From the NCBI GenBank assembly GCA_000004695.1, contig CM000154.2, forward strand, positions 1-64,000: 64,000 nt of DNA, read 5' to 3'. Shown here piece after piece: positions 4,959 through 51,749 of the stretch. The stretch comes from Dictyostelium discoideum. Its lineage: Eukaryota. The translations under genes and the position numbers were made by a program. The notes under the pieces were generated by a model, which had not been told where the DNA came from, searched no databases, and saw only the letters and a program-made list of their open reading frames with translations. The first letter of the stretch is position 1. Each line of letters opens with the position of its first letter.

Positions 4959-5245
4959 TCTTATACATTCCAAACATACTTTCATAATATCACATAATCA
5001 GAGCCGTTAAAATTATTTCTAATTTTTTTTTTTTTTTGCTCTAAATTTTTTTTTTTTTTTTTTTAATTTCAGACTGAAAAACATTCTGATTTCTCAAATA
5101 ATGTTTTAAAAAAAAAAAAAAATAATAAAAATAATAAAATAAAAAAAAAAATTAATAAAAAGAAACATGTTCTTATTAAAACAATTTAAAAATAATTCTA
5201 AAATGTAAATATGATTCTAGAAATAATTTTATATGTTATCATTGA

Positions 5246-10148: not shown

Positions 10149-15933
<5,785 letters not shown>

Positions 15934-16975: not shown

Positions 16976-17304
16976 ATCTTTTGTTTTTTAGTTCTTTTTG
17001 ATGATTTTTGTTGTTCTTCTTCTATTTGTTTTTGTAATGCCGCTGCTTGGGATCGAGTTTTTGGTGGTGAAATTGGAGTTGTTGTTGGAGTTGTTGTTGG
17101 AGTTGTTGTTGGAGTTGTTGTTGGAGTAGTTGTTGGTGTAGTGGTTGGTGTAGTGGTTGTTGATGTAGTGTTCCCACTACCTTTTTTTGGTTGTTGATTG
17201 ATTATTGACTCTTTATTAATTTCGTTTTCCTTATTTATTGTGGTTGTTGCCGTTGTATTTGATTTGGGAGTTGGTGTTTTACGCTTTTTATTACCAGTAG
17301 ACAT
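16976..17304 (-). CDS. Basic Lys/Thr-rich exon (MSTGNKKRKTPTPKS...TTTP x7...KRTKKQK). Proposed to be the 5' exon of the HECT ligase gene, spliced over a 774-nt intron (16975..16202); otherwise a separate 110-aa gene.
   Basis: The ORF ends in AAG AT|GTAAGT, a canonical donor leaving 2 nt. Acceptor aataaatag at 16203-16202 supplies 1 nt and lands exactly in the HECT frame, which is open from 16201 to the ATG at 15933. Human TRIP12 has a similar basic Ser-rich disordered N-terminus. Confidence 0.4.
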
Positions 17305-39156: not shown

Positions 39157-40193
39157 TATCTCTTTAAACAAAAAAAAAAATAAAATAAATAAAAAAATAA
39201 AAAAAAAATGAAGTTCAGGTGAAAATCTAAAACAAAAATATCTTTTTATTTTAATAAAAAAAATATTCGGAAATAAAAAACTTTTAAAATAAATAGAGAC
39301 ATTTTGACTTTTATTTTATTTTATTTGATTTTATTTTAATTTAATTTTTTTTTTTTTTTTTTTTTTTTTTTGAATTATTGTTATTTGAAACTCCCTTTGA
39401 TTCTGATTTGTCTATTTTTTTTTTCAAGAGTCTTTTAAATTTTTAATTCTTATAAAAAAATTGTAATTTAAATGTCAAATGGGCACAATCGGGACATTGA
39501 GTTTAATACCTGTTCAGACTCGAGAGGTATCGTTCATTTCACTCTGCACCATCATCAATTAAGAAAGATTGTAAAATAAACTCTAATGGTGGAAAAATTA
39601 TGAGAAGAAACAGCTTTAAAAAAACATCTGCGGTCTCAAAAACCCAACAAGTCAGTAGTGACTATAAATTTGCATTAAAAATTAAATCTTTTTCTTAAAT
39701 TTCTCTTTAAAATAATATTAAATTATTAAATAATTATGTAATGAATATAAAAAATTTTCTTTTAGAAAATTTTTTTAACTATTTTTTGAATTGGATAACA
39801 CAATTATTATTTGCTTCTCCTTGAGATGCTAAATCTCATTTTATTTGTAGTATTTTTTACAGGGTTTCTAAAAGAGGTGTTAGTTTATTTTTTTTTTTTT
39901 TTTTTTTTTTTTTTTCGAATTTTTAATTGTATTATTACTTTTGATTAAAACATCTTTTTTGTCCAAACTTTTTTTTAAATCTTTTTTTATTTTGGAGTCG
40001 GCTTCGTGATTGATGTTGATGACATATTTGAATTGTTTTTTTTTATTTGAGTTCTGTCTACAATTTCGCTTATTTTTTGTAGGTATTTGTATTGGTGGTG
40101 TTATTGGTTATTTTCATCTTATTTTCTTTCTATTTTTTTTATTTTACTTTAAAAAGTTACAAATCTTGAAATTTTTTGATTAACTTGGGTTCC

Positions 40194-40197
<4 letters not shown>

Positions 40198-40242
<45 letters not shown>

Positions 40243-40840
40243 TATTATTTATAGAGAGTACTATCACTACTAGTTTTAGCGAGATTAAGGAGTCTAGCGA
40301 CAGTATGACGGGTCTTGAACTACCCAACCCCTCATAGTATCGGTGAAACCTTAAGTCACTTTCTTGACTGACATTCGCTCTCATCTCTCGCGCCACTCAC
40401 TCGCCATTCGTTTTTATATATTTTTACTTTTATCGACTTACTATGTGTGAGCGCGAAGGCCCAGAGGCATAAGCCTCCTTCCCGTTACTTGAAGTGTCTC
40501 GCCAGTGTGCCACACGTTTACTGTTGCAGTGACTGAATAACCAACGGCTTCGCTTAAGCCTTATCGAGGTGTCCTGTTGACCGTTTGTGCCGTCGAATGG
40601 TTTTGCAAACTACCTCCCCAGATTCGATGATAGTATTGTAATCACTCATTTCGGAGTTTTTAGTTGCTATGCTTATTGGTCTGGTTATACATGTCCGAGG
40701 AGATTTTTTTGCTTTAAACCATCAATATAAGCAGTTTTTATTACTTCCTACTATTGACCTAGGTCTTATATGTTTTTATGAGCCAACAGGTTATCTTACC
40801 GTTGTACCCTTGGGACATAAGTCTATCTCTTGTCTGCTAT
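40198..40840 (-). mobile_element. Non-autonomous TRE5-like (tRNA-gene-targeted non-LTR retroelement) relic: GC-richer ORF-less segment with a 50-nt poly(A) tail on the minus strand and its 5' end about 48 bp upstream of tRNA-Lys.
   Basis: Composition about 45% GC against flanks under 20%. Poly-T at 40198-40247 on plus. The element ends at about 40838 and the tRNA starts at 40886, the characteristic TRE5 spacing. No ORF. The family rests on position and geometry only. Confidence 0.4.
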
Positions 40841-40885
40841 TATTTTTAATTTAAGCTTGTATTAAAATTAAATTTACCAAAAAAT

Positions 40886-40958
40886 GCCCAGATAGCTCAG
40901 TCGGTAGAGCGCAAGGCTTTTAACCTTGTGGTCGGGGGTTCGAGCCCCCCTTTGGGCG
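40886..40958 (+). tRNA. tRNA-Lys (anticodon UUU), 73 nt.
   Basis: GCCCAGA/TTTGGGC acceptor stem, D-arm GCTCAGTCGGTAGAGC, anticodon arm CAAGG-CTTTTAA-CCTTG, T-arm GGGGG-TTCGAGC-CCCCC, discriminator G. A- and B-boxes are internal. Confidence 0.95.
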
Positions 40959-40988
40959 AAATTTTCTAAATGTACCCATTAGATCATA

Positions 40989-40999
40989 GGTTCGAATCC
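40989..40999 (+). promoter_or_regulatory. External B-box (exB) GGTTCGAATCC, 31 bp downstream of the tRNA.
   Basis: Perfect B-box consensus without a tRNA body, a known feature of Dictyostelium tRNA gene flanks. Confidence 0.5.
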
Positions 41000-41099
41000 T
41001 AATTAAATGGAAATTCATTACCTAATATTTCTGAAAAACTTGCACCACTAATAAAATACTCTTATTGAAATGATAAAGAATTACCTATTTTTTAATTTT

Positions 41100-41336
41100 G
41101 TAATTGATTCTGTATTTGTTGAGTTTTATATGCGAGTTGTTACCATTTCGTGTATTTTTAAAATACTCTCTCAAAAGACCCAAACAACTTCAAAGATCCA
41201 AACGTTTTCCTCAATCAAATTATTAATTTAAGAAACTTAACATGCAAAGTCTATTGCATTCCGAAATCAGTACTCCCAAACCTAGTCTCTTTCGACCAAT
41301 TTATTTAAATAATTCTCAAAAAAAAAAAAAAAAAAT
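41100..41336 (+). mobile_element. Possible 5'-truncated TRE3-like retroelement 3' fragment ending in an A19 tail, 140-380 bp downstream of the tRNA.
   Basis: An approximately 230-bp ORF-less segment of normal complexity, terminated by poly(A) at 41318-41336 on plus. The position is typical for TRE3 insertions. Confidence 0.25.
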
Positions 41337-41564
41337 TTCTAAATAAAACTATTAATTATTGTTTATTCCCTTTAAAGGATAAACTTTAATTAATCAATAT
41401 AAAAAAAAAAAAAAAAAAAAATTTTAAAATCTAATAATATTTGATGGTAATATTGATTTTTATCTTCGTTTTTTACGAAATTTTTTATTAAACATATCTG
41501 TTTCAAATTTATATTATTAAATAAATAACATGTTGGTCATTCTTTATGTGTCAACTAGATACTT

Positions 41565-44048: not shown

Positions 44049-47000
44049 TTATTGATAATCAGAAAGTGGTGGGCAAGAACAAACTAAATTTTTATCACCA
44101 TGAACGTTATCAATTCTACCAACGGTTGGCCAGAATTTTGAGGCAACAGTTGCAGGAGTTGGGAAAGCAGCTTTAGAACGAGAGTATGGATAATTCCAAT
44201 TATCAGCGACAATAACTTTTTCAGTGTGTGGAGAATTAACGAGAACATTATTTTTTCTGTCGGCTTTACCAGTTTCAATCTCTCTAATTTCCTCACGAAT
44301 TAAAATGAGAGCATCACAAAGACGATCCAATTCATATTTTGATTCAGATTCGGTTGGTTCAATCATAAGAGTATTTGGTACTGGCCAAGACATGGTTGGA
44401 CCATGGAAATTCATATCTTGAAGACGTTTAGCTACATCTTCAGCTTCGATACCAGCAGATTCCTTAAACATTCTAAGATCAATAATGAATTCATGAGCTA
44501 CCAAACCATGGGAACCAGTGTAAAGAATTTTATAGTGATCCTTTAATCTACTTGCCATATAGTTTGCATTGAGAATGGCGACTTGGGTTGCTTTTTTCAA
44601 ACCTTGACCACCCATTAATTTCAAGTAAACATAAGTGATTGGAAGGATTGAACTTGAACCCCATGGACCAGCAGAAACTGCACTCATTGCACGTTCACCA
44701 CCTACACCCTTTACAACGGAATGACCTGGAAGGAATGGAGCGAGATGGGATTTAACGCAAATTGGACCCATACCTGGACCACCACCACCATGTGGAATAC
44801 AAAAAGTTTTATGAAGATTTAAATGACAAACATCGGCACCAATATCACCTGGACGACAAAGACCAACTTGAGCGTTCATATTTGCACCATCCATATAGAC
44901 TTGACCACCATTGGCATGAATGATATCACAAATATCATTGGCACCCTCTTCAAATACACCATGAGTGGATGGATAAGTGATCATAAGAGCAGCCAATGTA
45001 TCTTTATGTTTTTCAGCTTTAGCTTTAAGATCGGCAACATCGATATTACCATTGGTATCACAATCTACAACAACAACTTTCATACCAACCATTGCAGCAC
45101 TTGCTGGATTAGTACCATGAGCAGAGACTGGAATGAGACAAACATTTCTTTGACTTTGACCAATTGAAGTTAAATAAGAACGAATTACCATTAAACCAGC
45201 ATATTCACCTTGTGAACCAGCATTTGGTTGTAAAGAACAACCATCGAAACCAGTGACTTCACATAACATATTTGAGATTGATTCAAACATTTCCTTATAA
45301 CCAAGTGATTGATTAGCTGGTACAAATGGATGAATTGAATTAAATTCTGGCCATGAAACTGGATACATTTCAGTGGTAGCATTTAATTTCATTGTACAAC
45401 TACCCAATGGAATCATTGCTGTGGTTAAACCTAAATCCTTCTTTTGAAGTTTATGAATATAACGAAGAAGTTCATGTTCTGAATGATATCTATTAAAGAT
45501 TGGATGAGTAAGGAATGGTGTTTGACGAGCAAATTCTTCTGAAATAACAGAGATTGTAGAGGTTTCTTTTTCCAATTGTTCTGGTGATGATAAACCCAAT
45601 GGTTTTGATGCGTGAGCTGAAAATCCATTCAATAATGCACTGATATCAGCAGAGGTAACAGTTTCATCCAATGAGATTGAAATTGATTTACTACAATATT
45701 GACGAACATTAATTTGACGTGATTCCAATTCTTTAATCATCATATCGGTCTTATCACCAGTGATAATTAAAACTGTATCAAAGAATGGACGATCCAAAAC
45801 TGTATAACCCAATCTTTTAATACCTTCAGCGAGGATGATAGCTTTTCTATGAACTGCATTGGCAATATCTTTAATACCTTGTTGACCATGATAAACTGCA
45901 TACATTGCAGACATATTAGCCAAGAGTGCTTGAGAGGTACAAATGTTTGATGTTGCTTTTTCACGACGAATATGTTGTTCACGAGTTTGTAATGCCATAC
46001 GGAATGCTGAATTACCTTGTTTATCTTTACTTACACCAATGATTCTACCTGGAAGTAAACGAGCATACTTATCTTTAGTTGAAAAGAAAGCAGCATGTGG
46101 ACCACCAAAACCTAATGGTACACCAAATCTTTGACTATTACCCAAGGCAATATCAGCTCCCCATTCACCTGGTGGTTTCAATAATGCCAATGAGAGTAAA
46201 TCAGTGGCAGCTACAACCAATGCATTGGCTTGATGAGCACGATCTGCCATCTCCTTATAATCGGTAATGACACCATTGCTTGATGGATATTGAACGATAC
46301 AACCAACTACATCCTCTGTGAATTTGAAATCCTTTGAATCGACTACTTCAATACGAATACCCTTTGGTTCTGCTCTAGTTTTAATGGTATCAATTGTTTG
46401 TGGATGACAATATTTATCGACCAAGAAAGCAAATGGTCCTTTACTCTTTGAAATGTTTACACACATTTGCATTGCCTCTGCAGCAGCGGTTGCTTCATCC
46501 AATAATGATGCATTTGACATTGGTAAACCTGTAAACTCTGATACCATAGTTTGGAAATTCAATAAACTCTCCAAACGACCTTGACTAATCTCTGCTTGAT
46601 ATGGTGTGTATGGTGTATACCAACCTGGATTCTCTAAAATGTTACGTTGAATTACATGTGGTGTAATTGTTCCATAATAACCCATGCCAATGAATGATCT
46701 ATAAACTTTATTCTTTTCTGCAATCTTTTTTAAATCCTTTAATAATTGATTCTCACCAATAACTTTATTCTCTTCAATATTTAATTCTCTATTTAATCTA
46801 ATATCCTTTGGAATTGTATATTCGATCAATTGTTCTAAACTATTTGGATTCTTTTTTGAAAGTTTTGATGTATTAATACTTTTTAACATTTCATTAATTT
46901 CATTTTCATTTGGTCCAATATGTCTTTTTGGAAATGTATCTAATGCTTGAAATATTGATTGTTTTGTTGAATAATTCTAAAAAAAAAAAAAAAAAATTAA

Positions 47001-49844: not shown

Positions 49845-49847
49845 TTA

Positions 49848-49907
<60 letters not shown>

Positions 49908-51749
49908 ATTTAAAAACCCTTGAGAGTTGATGGCATTTGTTGCACCTTGTTGTACAGCAGGATTTCTAGCAGCATTCATAGCACCTTGTTGTACAGCAGG
50001 ATTTCTTGCAGCATTTAATGCAAAACCACCCATTTGATTCATTTGTTGTTGTGATGGTTGTGGTACGCCACCTGCTGGTTTTGGTACTGGATAGGTTGGA
50101 CCTTGTTTAAATGTTGATGATACTGGACGAGGTGGTGCTTGCTGTTGTTGTTGTTGTTGTGGTGGTGCATATTGTTGTGGTGGTTGGTATTGTTGTGGTG
50201 GTGCATATTGTTGTGGTGGTTGATATTGTTGTGGGGCAGCACCACCTGGTGGTTTACCAAATGGAGAAGGTATACCACCAACAGGTCTTGGTGGTGCCTG
50301 TTGTTGTTGTGGAGTTGGAGCAGCACCACCACCATATTGTTGTGGAGTTGGATACATTGATTTAGCACCTGGTGGTGGAGCAGGTCGAGATGGTACTTGT
50401 TGTTGATTTGGTGGTGATGGTTGACGAAGTGGTTGTGGTGGTCTATATTGTTGTTGTGGTGGTTGTTGTTGTTCATATTCCCCATATTGTTGTTGTTGTG
50501 GTGGTGATGGTTGTTGATATTGATTTGGTTGTTGGTAACTTCCAACTTGTTGTGGTTGTGGTTGATATGGTTGTGGAGCTGAAGAAACTGGACGTGGTGG
50601 TGGAGCGCCATTTGATTGAGGTGGTGATGGTCTTTGAACATTATTAGTAACATTATTATTTAAACCTCCACTACTACCACTACTTGGATTACTTGATACA
50701 GGAGAATCATCTATAGATGGAATAGTTGTAGATTGACCTAAAAATTCAATTACTGGATTATAATATGGTGGAGTTTGTTGAATGAAATGAGAATTTTGAT
50801 CATGACTTGATGAGATTGTTGAGAATAAACCACTTAATGATAAAAGAATATTTTGAAGTGGCCATTCAAAGTAATCAATCTTATCCTCAAAGAATTGAGA
50901 TATATCAGATAATGCCTTTTGATTGGCAATTATAAATGATTCTCTCTTTGCATTGTAATTGTTTTGTTCTTGTTGTAATTTATGAATTTCTTTTGATGGT
51001 TTCTCTTTTAATGATTTTATCTTTGATGCACTCTTATCAACTTCTTCCAATAATTTATCTCTATCAGAAATTGCATCTTTAATAAATTTAGATCTTGCTA
51101 AATATTGTTGAATATAATCATAATTTGCTTTTTGACTTTGCTATTTATATATTTTGATAAAAAAAATAATTAATTATTAAATTTTAAAAATAAAAATAAA
51201 AATAAAAATAAAAATAAAATTACATACAGTCCATTCATTAAAACTTGCTTCTATAGTTTTATTTACTTCAGTTGTATATTGAGTAAGTGGATGTGAAGAT
51301 GGGAAATATTTTTGAACATTCTTATTCAAACTACTTGGATGAATAAAGGTTTCTATATAAAATTTTTAATTTTTTTAATTTTTTTTTTATTAAATAATTT
51401 AATTTAATGATAAATAATTAAAAATATTATTTATATTAATGACAGTAAAAATAATAATTACTTTGTAAATTTTTATCATGTTTTAATAAAGATTCATAGG
51501 TTTTAGTAATAGTTTCATTGAGTGTTGTATATTCTTTTCTTGCTGTTTCAAAGTTTAAATCAACTGAGCTTGGACCAGAGCTTACTAATCCTTTTAGCTA
51601 AAAATTTTTTTTTTTTTTATTAATTAAAAAATAAGAATTAGAAAAAAAATAAGAATTAAAAAAATTTAGATTAAATTTAATCTAAATTTTTTTTTTTTTT
51701 TTTTTTTTTTTTCAATATGAAAAACTTACTTTTGCTCCAAAAGATTTCA
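49845..51749 (-). CDS. N-BAR-like (amphiphysin/Rvs-like) coiled-coil protein with a long Pro/Gln/Tyr-rich tail (PPQQY repeats). The C-terminus ends in about 19 Lys encoded by a poly-A run. Four-exon model.
   Basis: Exons: 51749..51729 (MKSFGAK|GTAAGT), 51597..51462, 51353..51228 (donor GTATGT), 51140..49845. Exon 3 needs a 1-nt correction in an A5 run to keep frame (or my model is wrong there). Tandem 51-nt repeat (NAARNPAVQQGA x2) at about 49930-50030. Confidence 0.4.
49851..49906. repeat. 56-nt poly(T) (poly(A) on the minus strand), read in frame as the C-terminal poly-Lys of the upstream gene.
   Basis: Direct reading. Preceded by a duplicated aaatcttaag motif. Confidence 0.9.

Follow-up and report, generated by a model that had tools for sequence, protein, structure and literature searches.

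A Dictyostelium discoideum tRNA-Lys(UUU) gene very probably flanked by defective TRE5-A-derived and TRE3-type copies, the upstream one headed by a GC-richer segment unlike TRE5-A

In Dictyostelium discoideum the TRE retrotransposons, which lack long terminal repeats, settle beside tRNA genes: TRE5 elements sit about 50 bp upstream in head-to-head orientation and TRE3 elements about 100 bp downstream in the orientation of the tRNA gene (PMC5006619, PMC5391098, PMC5911963), and a TRE is present at 61% of the tRNA genes, both kinds at 13% (PMC5006619). Which parts of the DNA around a given tRNA gene were brought by such elements, and where does each of them begin and end? We take up this question for the tRNA-Lys(UUU) gene in a 64-kb stretch of this genome (GCA_000004695.1, contig CM000154.2, positions 1–64,000; hereafter the window), where a GC-richer block without open reading frames (ORFs) lies directly upstream of the gene and long homopolymer runs occur on both sides. 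A sequence-only reading had taken the flanks for retroelement relics, TRE5-like upstream and TRE3-like downstream; its general idea was right, but it drew the element boundaries wrongly and misread both A-runs. Here we find that the tRNA gene and its external B box (exB) are very probably flanked by two dead copies, one derived from TRE5-A on the upstream side and one of TRE3 type on the downstream side. The locus is an ordinary arrangement in a sequenced reference genome, apart from a 542-bp segment, here called X, that forms the head of the upstream copy.

The integration target occupies 40886–40958 on the plus strand (Rfam RF00005, 72.6 bits; 40885–40959 by ARAGORN), is the sole tRNA gene found in the 64 kb, and is matched by the published Lys(UUU) primers (PMC3159450; PMC5391098 S1). 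Upstream of it, alignment to TRE5-A and comparison with empty sites delimit an insertion of 1,057 bp (39782–40838, minus strand), the 5' end of which, at 40837/40838, lies 48 ± 1 bp from the first base of the tRNA gene at 40886. The B- and C-modules and the start of ORF1 are on the minus strand and point away from the tRNA gene, which is on the plus strand; the two 5' ends, of element and tRNA gene, face each other. Both the spacing and the head-to-head geometry had been noticed from the sequence, and both follow the published rules for TRE5-A, which integrates 44–54 bp upstream of tRNA genes (PMC5911963) in the orientation opposite to the tRNA gene, 5' end to 5' end (PMC5391098).

A reference for the element was reached through the relic itself. 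Translated in six frames, 39916–40197 matches multi-copy 444-aa D. discoideum proteins (P0010–P0013, beginning MKITNNTTNI...) at 90% identity (E ~1e-9), and cluster members of these proteins in a newer assembly led to 19 loci encoding the 444-aa protein; in all, about 0.4 Mb of TRE5-A-rich sequence was sampled. The full-length copies in this sample carry ORF1 (444 aa) and ORF2 (1047 aa, with an RVT_1 domain), and each faces a tRNA gene from about 48 bp upstream. The copy at locus L021, which served as reference, has an ORF2 of 1047 aa with RVT_1 and an ORF1 with Ile-10, the residue altered in the I10* mutant (PMC3159450). Its B- and C-modules together measure 429 bp, as compared with 290 + 137 bp in the literature, where B is given as about 290 bp and C as 134–137 bp (PMC3159450). 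The nucleotides mutated in the C-module stems (T15, C26, A35 and C38, in the sense orientation and numbered from the 3' end; PMC3159450) are all present, and the endogenous TRE5-A primers Rep-190 and Rep-109Q match the element exactly. Judging by Ile-10, the B + C length, the C-module positions and the primers, the reference element is the TRE5-A of the literature. Neither primer matches in the window; both sit in ORF1, which the window copy lacks. An approximate human L1 ORF2 query brought up no reverse transcriptase-like ORF in the window or in the first loci. No TRE primers are given in PMC4559204, and a literature text search for 'TRE5-A.3' did not find the term. At three loci (L017–L019; GCA_054883475.1 CM142511.1, ~3.016–3.047 Mb) TRE5-A forms head-to-tail arrays with 4,890-bp spacing, in which the 3' B-module of one unit doubles as the 5' B-module of the next; the L017 B-modules, at 5030, 9920 and 14800, each follow an ORF2 tail, with no A-module. 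This suggests amplification of the arrays by recombination between B-modules, not separate insertions.

Against this reference, the 3' part of the window copy is 515 bp of ordinary TRE5-A 3' end, all on the minus strand: ORF2 tail, internal oligo(A), B-module, C-module and a short A tail. By blastn the window from 40262 to 39770 is colinear with the canonical TRE5-A.1 3' end (87.7% identity over 511 bp), uninterrupted through the run of 40 A residues. The terminal tail is A6 (39782–39787), directly after the C-module end CCAATTC, where canonical copies have their poly(A) tails. The C-module with its leading oligo(dA) (T28 on the plus strand, 39888–39915) occupies 39788–39915, as determined by blastn and a three-way alignment; 39770–39887 shares 84–91% identity (blastn) with the stretch just past the 3' B-module at all TRE5-A loci, and the stem nucleotides T15, C26, A35 and C38, read from the sequence, are all found from 39788 onward and not at the end of the GC-richer block. 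The B-module (39916–40197, 282 bp), half untranslated and then running through the ORF1 start and about 66 codons, aligns over 282 bp at 87–88% identity (blastn) with the 5' and 3' B-modules of every TRE5-A locus. Its ORF1 N-terminus, MKITNNTTN..., is recognisable; because the ORF1 start region (40090–40110) carries a 10-bp deletion (canonical ...caaatattaag...) and further frameshifts, the 66-codon stub is untranslatable. Beyond the B-module, comparison with the reference places an internal oligo(A)40 (T40 on the plus strand, 40198–40237) between the ORF2 end and the 3' B-module, and then a 3' remnant of ORF2 (40238–40296; ...LDSLISLKL... and a stop codon; blastn, tblastn) with an internal deletion of about 85 bp. 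DSLISLKL corresponds to ORF2 residues 1019–1027 (tblastn); the 29 bp from 40296 to 40268, just upstream of the 511-bp alignment, match canonical positions 5072–5100 at 86%; and the stop codon is followed by ...ctctataaataa ahead of the oligo(A)40. In coding sequence the copy holds the 66-codon ORF1 stub and the last ~60 bp of ORF2, the frame that in TRE5-A encodes APE, reverse transcriptase and a zinc finger, and nothing more; it is defective and non-autonomous.

The head of the element is of a different kind. Segment X (40297–40838, minus strand, 542 bp) has no ORF and a GC content of 0.43, as compared with at most 0.39 for any 500-bp stretch of TRE5-A.1; the GC-richer block as a whole reaches 0.43–0.47, as compared with a mean of 0.228 for the 64-kb window, and has stops in all six frames, so the description of the block as GC-richer and ORF-less was accurate. 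X showed no similarity to TRE5-A.1 by blastn (word size 7) or tblastx, and none to the A-module region of L021 (9621–9886), the ~200-bp promoter module that we did not find in the window copy. As far as these comparisons go, X is not TRE5-A sequence. It had been argued that the block, if a TRE5-A, must be a deleted derivative without the ORFs; its content is not that of a deleted A-B-C version of TRE5-A: about 540 of its 600 bp lack TRE5-A similarity, and only the last ~60 bp, the ORF2 tail, match. A six-frame protein search with the block gave no match at E ≤ 0.001, and exact look-up of four small ORFs from it and two from the downstream segment found none of the six in the protein collection. 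X matched no Rfam family even at E up to 10 and has no tRNA-, 5S- or 7SL-like part; it has no match among JGI metagenomes, GTDB genomes and PLSDB plasmids, nor to the rDNA-palindrome primers of PMC5391098. Within the window the block has no second copy (blastn returned homopolymer matches only). In the TRE5-A sample, X is absent from 18 other TRE5-A sites; a second, partial copy does occur in L021, where 15353–15530 aligns with X positions 118–301 (85% over 185 bp) and is followed by TRE5-A ORF2 tail, an A-rich tract, B and C, at a different tRNA gene. This copy belongs to three successive TRE5-A-type insertions (L021 15258–16160) at one tRNA-Lys(CUU) gene, namely a full-length copy, a C-module fragment of ~60 bp and the copy with partial X, B and C, with the target copy GTGGGTT... 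after each.

Does the element end at the long A-run beside the block? The sequence-only reading had assigned the block a 50-nt poly(A) tail and thereby a self-contained length of about 640 bp. The run is in fact 40 nt long (40198–40237), and since an A-run precedes all 46 B-modules in the sampled loci (22–43 nt), it is an internal tract and does not mark the end of the element, which is reached only about 415 bp to its left. The sampled 3' B-modules are preceded by ...cagtactttctataaataaat and A28–43, that of the window by ...agtactctctataaataataatatt and A40. The call of a TRE5-A-type, ORF-less derivative stands, while its extent does not: the element runs on to 39782 and measures 1,057 bp. 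One could still hold that 40198–40838 is a complete, deleted TRE5 of ~640 bp with its own 40–50-nt poly(A) tail, and that the DNA to its left is a separate, older insertion which it displaced from the tRNA gene. There are indeed tRNA genes with tandem TRE5-A insertions (L021; Table S2 footnote, PMC5006619), and the block does end in a long A-run with its 5' end at -48. Yet the last ~60 bp of the block, the A-run and the B-module stand in the exact canonical TRE5-A succession (ORF2 tail, A28–43, B), so that two events would require an unrelated element that by chance ended in a TRE5-A ORF2 tail and landed at the first base of a start-truncated B-module. No target-site copy lies beside the T40 run, and the L021 copy of X repeats the same order of X, ORF2 tail, A-run, B and C. 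We consider a tandem origin highly improbable. The A-run itself differs in length (34 nt, at 17009–17042) in the otherwise identical locus L006 (GCA_054883475.1), a homopolymer difference between assemblies or strains; L006 is 100% identical to the window across the block, the tRNA gene and downstream to 42600, and 99% identical across 39600–40197.

Whether X arrived together with the TRE5-A tail can be judged from empty sites. Loci L010 (GCA_054859355.1) and L011 (GCA_054859385.1) carry the orthologous tRNA-Lys gene beside the same Rab gene and have neither the upstream nor the downstream insertion. In both, the tRNA gene is preceded by ~100 bp of simple flank and then by homology to the unique 39606–39735 of the window; once 39782–40852 is removed, the window aligns with them unbroken. 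The alignment also exposes an imperfect target-site duplication, with a left copy AAATTTTTTTAACTA at 39767–39781 and a right copy at 40839–40853, within the 48-bp tRNA spacer: the sequence AAATTTTTATT... is single-copy in L010 and L011 and stands, imperfectly, on both sides of the insertion in the window. Because removal of the insertion restores the unbroken alignment with one target copy, the whole 1,057 bp, X included, entered as one unit, and we conclude that the RNA being copied already contained X, or that X was added while this RNA was reverse-transcribed. A single insertion event is the best reading of the upstream DNA. The repeated targeting that had been proposed for this tRNA gene thus holds in the sense of one insertion on each side, and not for the upstream side by itself.

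The same comparison bears on the view that the GC-richer block is unique, non-repetitive local DNA without any retroelement link, for example a gene for a non-coding RNA (ncRNA), the outcome that would have overturned the sequence-only reading. The block has no ORF, its GC content is like that of structured RNAs, and X folds with a z-score of -2.7 on the element-sense strand, a moderate value. The opposite strand, however, folds nearly as well (z = -2.0), no Rfam family emerged in the search described above, the block is missing together with the TRE5-A tail from the orthologous sites in L010 and L011, and the second copy of X stands beside another TRE5-A tail in L021. Local DNA is thus scarcely tenable as an explanation. 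X could nevertheless derive from an ncRNA gene elsewhere in the genome.

A further orthologous tRNA-Lys gene, in D. cf. discoideum (L009), is without the upstream element of the window, but has a different repeat directly upstream. This repeat (L009 15217–15620) shares ~79% identity with L027 3891–4189, beside a tRNA-Glu gene, and also matches L016 15240–15610; possibly it represents a further element that targets tRNA genes, such as a DGLT-A long terminal repeat. The tRNA-Lys(UUU) gene itself is 100% identical in L009, L010 and L011, and because the orthologous sites there lack both insertions of the window, both postdate the split from these lineages. Another D. cf. discoideum locus (L008 13540–14400, GCA_054859235.1) carries a non-orthologous tRNA-Lys(UUU) copy near a glycine dehydrogenase gene, with an exB variant GGTTCGAATCT and a downstream segment flanked by two copies of TCTATAATAAATGTTATTAATTA; since the Rab gene is missing there, the region is rearranged.

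What, then, lies on the other side of the tRNA gene? Downstream, a 5'-truncated TRE3-type relic of 279 bp (41143–41421, plus strand) is recognised by the C-terminus of its ORF2, its 3' untranslated region (UTR), its poly(A) tail and the empty sites: without 41143–41421 the window aligns unbroken with L009, and the stretch is also absent from L010 and L011. Its last 48 ORF2 codons (41162–41305, stop at 41306–41308) match residues 1003–1050 of the 1050-aa, RVT_1-containing ORF2 of L020 end to end (58% identity, E = 1e-17); the L020 element lies downstream of a tRNA-Val gene in the same orientation, which is the TRE3 position. The 3' UTR (41309–41400) is 86–88% identical to those of relics in L022, L016 and L014, with whose poly(A) tails the A21 at 41401–41421 aligns. 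A TRE3 landing had been proposed for 41100–41336, with a segment of ~230 bp ending in A19. The assignment and the tRNA orientation are confirmed, and the segment is indeed non-local and ends in an A-run, but its span is 41143–41421, the run in question is an A18 (41318–41335) inside the 3' UTR, and the tail is the A21. At the DNA level the relic shares only ~71% identity with the abundant TRE3 type (L020, L029, L030), from which we take it to represent another subfamily; identity to the L016, L022 and L014 relics is 76–88%. It lies downstream of the tRNA gene, 5'-truncated, poly(A)-tailed and in the orientation of the tRNA gene, as the TRE3-A to TRE3-D elements do; for these the published distance is 40–150 bp on the downstream side, counted from either the internal or the external B box, with element and tRNA gene in the same orientation (PMC5911963).

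Between the tRNA gene and this relic lies the exB, GGTTCGAATCC (40989–40999, plus strand), 30 bp past the tRNA 3' end. It is a perfect match to the B-box consensus, as had been read from the sequence; in the 64 kb GGTTCGANNCC occurs at two sites, the exB and the internal B box of the tRNA gene (40937–40947, plus strand), as compared with 0.01 expected. The exB is kept at the orthologous loci L009, L010 and L011, and in its position and conservation it shows nothing unusual for an element present at about 80% of D. discoideum tRNA genes (PMC5911963). The ~120 bp of AT-rich DNA between exB and relic (41020–41142) is present in the window and L009 and missing from L010 and L011, an indel without a repeat match.

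The window abounds in homopolymer runs of 15 nt or more (~120), so an A- or T-run is uninformative by itself; the argument is carried by comparison with reference elements and empty sites, not by A-runs. Several observations nevertheless weigh against the account given so far. The upstream target-site duplication, AT-rich and matching at only ~10 of 13 positions, is weak taken alone, and so is the terminal A tail of only 6 nt. Downstream, the distance to the 5' junction of the relic is 184 bp from the tRNA end and 143 bp from the exB, which places the junction at the limit of the published 40–150 bp or outside it, a range that the exB broadens; strains differ by indels in this intergenic stretch, and no target-site duplication is recognisable at the junctions of the relic. 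X could belong to TRE5-B, TRE5-C or one of the named TRE3-A to TRE3-D, as the TRE5 comparison covered TRE5-A. The two copies of X, the only two seen, join the TRE5-A tail at different points, with a TTA microhomology at the L021 junction, and substitutions in B and C are star-like (14, 12 and 17), the two X-bearing copies not grouping against the canonical element. Because the junctions differ and the substitutions are star-like, a common master element for the X copies is not demonstrated. Of the two checks that the sequence-only reading had suggested, alignment to TRE families thus recovered a TRE5-A 3' end and a TRE3-type ORF2 and left X without TRE5-A similarity, and the search for target-site duplications yielded an imperfect one of ~13 bp upstream and none at the TRE3 relic.

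How did a TRE5-A tail acquire such a head? The most likely origin, which we favour by a modest balance of the evidence, is that X became part of the unit at the RNA level. Going by what is published on TRE5-A, its ORF2 protein, supplied in trans, would bind an RNA with a C-module at the end, and the complex would be brought to a tRNA gene occupied by TFIIIB and TFIIIC. A nick ~48 bp upstream of the gene, followed by target-primed reverse transcription of the RNA, would give the fixed orientation and the short target-site duplication. X could have been added by a template switch of the reverse transcriptase, or the RNA may have been a hybrid of foreign body and TRE5-A 3' end transcribed from a progenitor copy. 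Without ORF1, a construct of promoter, marker and C-module still retrotransposes in trans, with 0.5% of the control rate; the C-module is indispensable (PMC3159450). Since such constructs still move, mobilisation of an X-bearing RNA in trans is plausible.

A progenitor of this kind leads to a more specific possibility, namely that units of X followed by B and C form an undescribed, low-copy, non-autonomous chimeric family, with a foreign head (captured cellular RNA or a piece of another transposon) and a TRE5-A tail, mobilised repeatedly in trans by TRE5-A.1 from a master copy. We regard this as possible but rather doubtful. Two copies stand at different tRNA genes, alike in their orientation and order with respect to the TRE5-A tail; the whole unit lies between duplicated target copies and is missing at the L010 and L011 sites; where X meets TRE5-A, both similarity and GC content change sharply (0.43 versus at most 0.39 per 500 bp); and the low-rate retrotransposition of ORF1-less C-module constructs fits. 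On the other hand, two copies are few for ~0.4 Mb of TRE5-A-rich sequence (none at the 18 other TRE5-A sites), they differ in the X/TRE5-A junction and in internal deletions, their B and C substitutions do not unite them, and a promoter was not identified in X. The picture would be the same if a template switch onto one abundant RNA had happened twice, independently.

The remaining candidate derives X from TRE-like sequence after all, as a heavily degenerated ORF2 segment of an extinct TRE5-A-related lineage, both X copies then being ordinary old elements with 5' truncations and internal deletions. Such truncation at different points (X position 1 and about 118) is typical of non-long-terminal-repeat elements. 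One frame of X reads EGGLCLWAFALTHSKSIKVKIYKNEWR, which weakly resembles the conserved GGL(E/N)LW..T.S.AQKAWIYE motif of TRE ORF2 proteins, GGL(E/N)LW above all. We compared X with 28 TRE-type and related ORF2 proteins by tblastn, and with 21 of these as a hidden Markov model profile alongside 100 shuffles. The best profile score exceeds 97 of the 100 shuffles; it is nevertheless marginal (0.1, as compared with -2.6 ± 1.4 for the shuffles, three of which reach it), and the weak matches are not colinear with ORF2. Neither at the nucleotide level nor by tblastx is X similar to TRE5-A ORF2, whereas the ORF2 tail next to it retains 86–88% identity, and decay in this genome should reduce GC content, yet that of X exceeds any part of TRE5-A.1. 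This origin is less likely than joining at the RNA level, and we would call it unlikely.

The upstream copy can be set beside known elements. It resembles TRE5-A.1 (formerly DRE), an autonomous, tRNA-gene-targeted element of the L1 clade, in its position 48 bp upstream, in the 5' end that faces the tRNA gene and in the colinear 3' end. It differs in being 1.06 kb long instead of 5.65 kb, ~12% diverged, and without A-module, ORF1 body or any of ORF2 except the last ~60 bp, in place of which it has 542 bp of unrelated sequence. With TRE5-A.2 and the synthetic TRE5-Absr constructs (PMC3159450) it shares a non-autonomous, C-module-dependent character, the target and the orientation. TRE5-A.2, however, keeps A, B and ORF1 and has a 72-bp deletion at the B/C junction, whereas the window copy has full-length B and C and lacks A, the 5' B-module and ORF1; the ORF1-less TRE5-Absr constructs demonstrate mobilisation of a foreign body that ends in a C-module (PMC3159450). 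The downstream relic differs from described TRE3 elements in its length of only 279 bp and in a junction slightly past the usual 40–150 bp. Outside Dictyostelium, a foreign 5' part on the 3' end of a long interspersed nuclear element (LINE) is found in LINE-mediated chimeric retrocopies, such as human U6/L1, and in LINE-tail parasites, namely SINEs that share a LINE 3' end, and SVA; SINEs and SVA move by LINE machinery. The unit of X, B and C is like the LINE chimeras and SVA in this respect, inserted as one unit with a target-site duplication; it is unlike SINE-like parasites in that only two copies were seen, with differing junctions, and no internal promoter was identified.

Elsewhere in the window, a 946-aa glycine dehydrogenase ORF (44049–46889) belongs to a 90%-identity cluster with AX4 XP_637330.1 and identifies the stretch as D. 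discoideum. Besides the block, one other stretch comes near a GC content of 0.46 (49845–51050, minus strand), a Pro/Gln-rich, low-complexity ORF of 401 aa; it has no Pfam match and is neither a repeat nor an RNA gene.

The locus is a textbook case of how retrotransposons persist in a gene-dense genome, by using safe zones beside RNA polymerase III genes. It also teaches that a long A-run in TRE5-A is no element end, since one precedes every B-module, and relics are therefore to be delimited by a modular reference together with empty sites. If X and its tail do constitute a chimera of the kind discussed here, no SINE- or SVA-like parasite or template-switch chimera would, to our knowledge, have been reported from the TRE family before it; as a family, such units would be the natural counterpart of the synthetic ORF1-less TRE5-Absr constructs. 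Should X prove to stem from a captured cellular RNA, or to head a small non-autonomous family, it would represent natural trans-mobilisation of foreign RNA by TRE5-A, so far seen with engineered constructs only.

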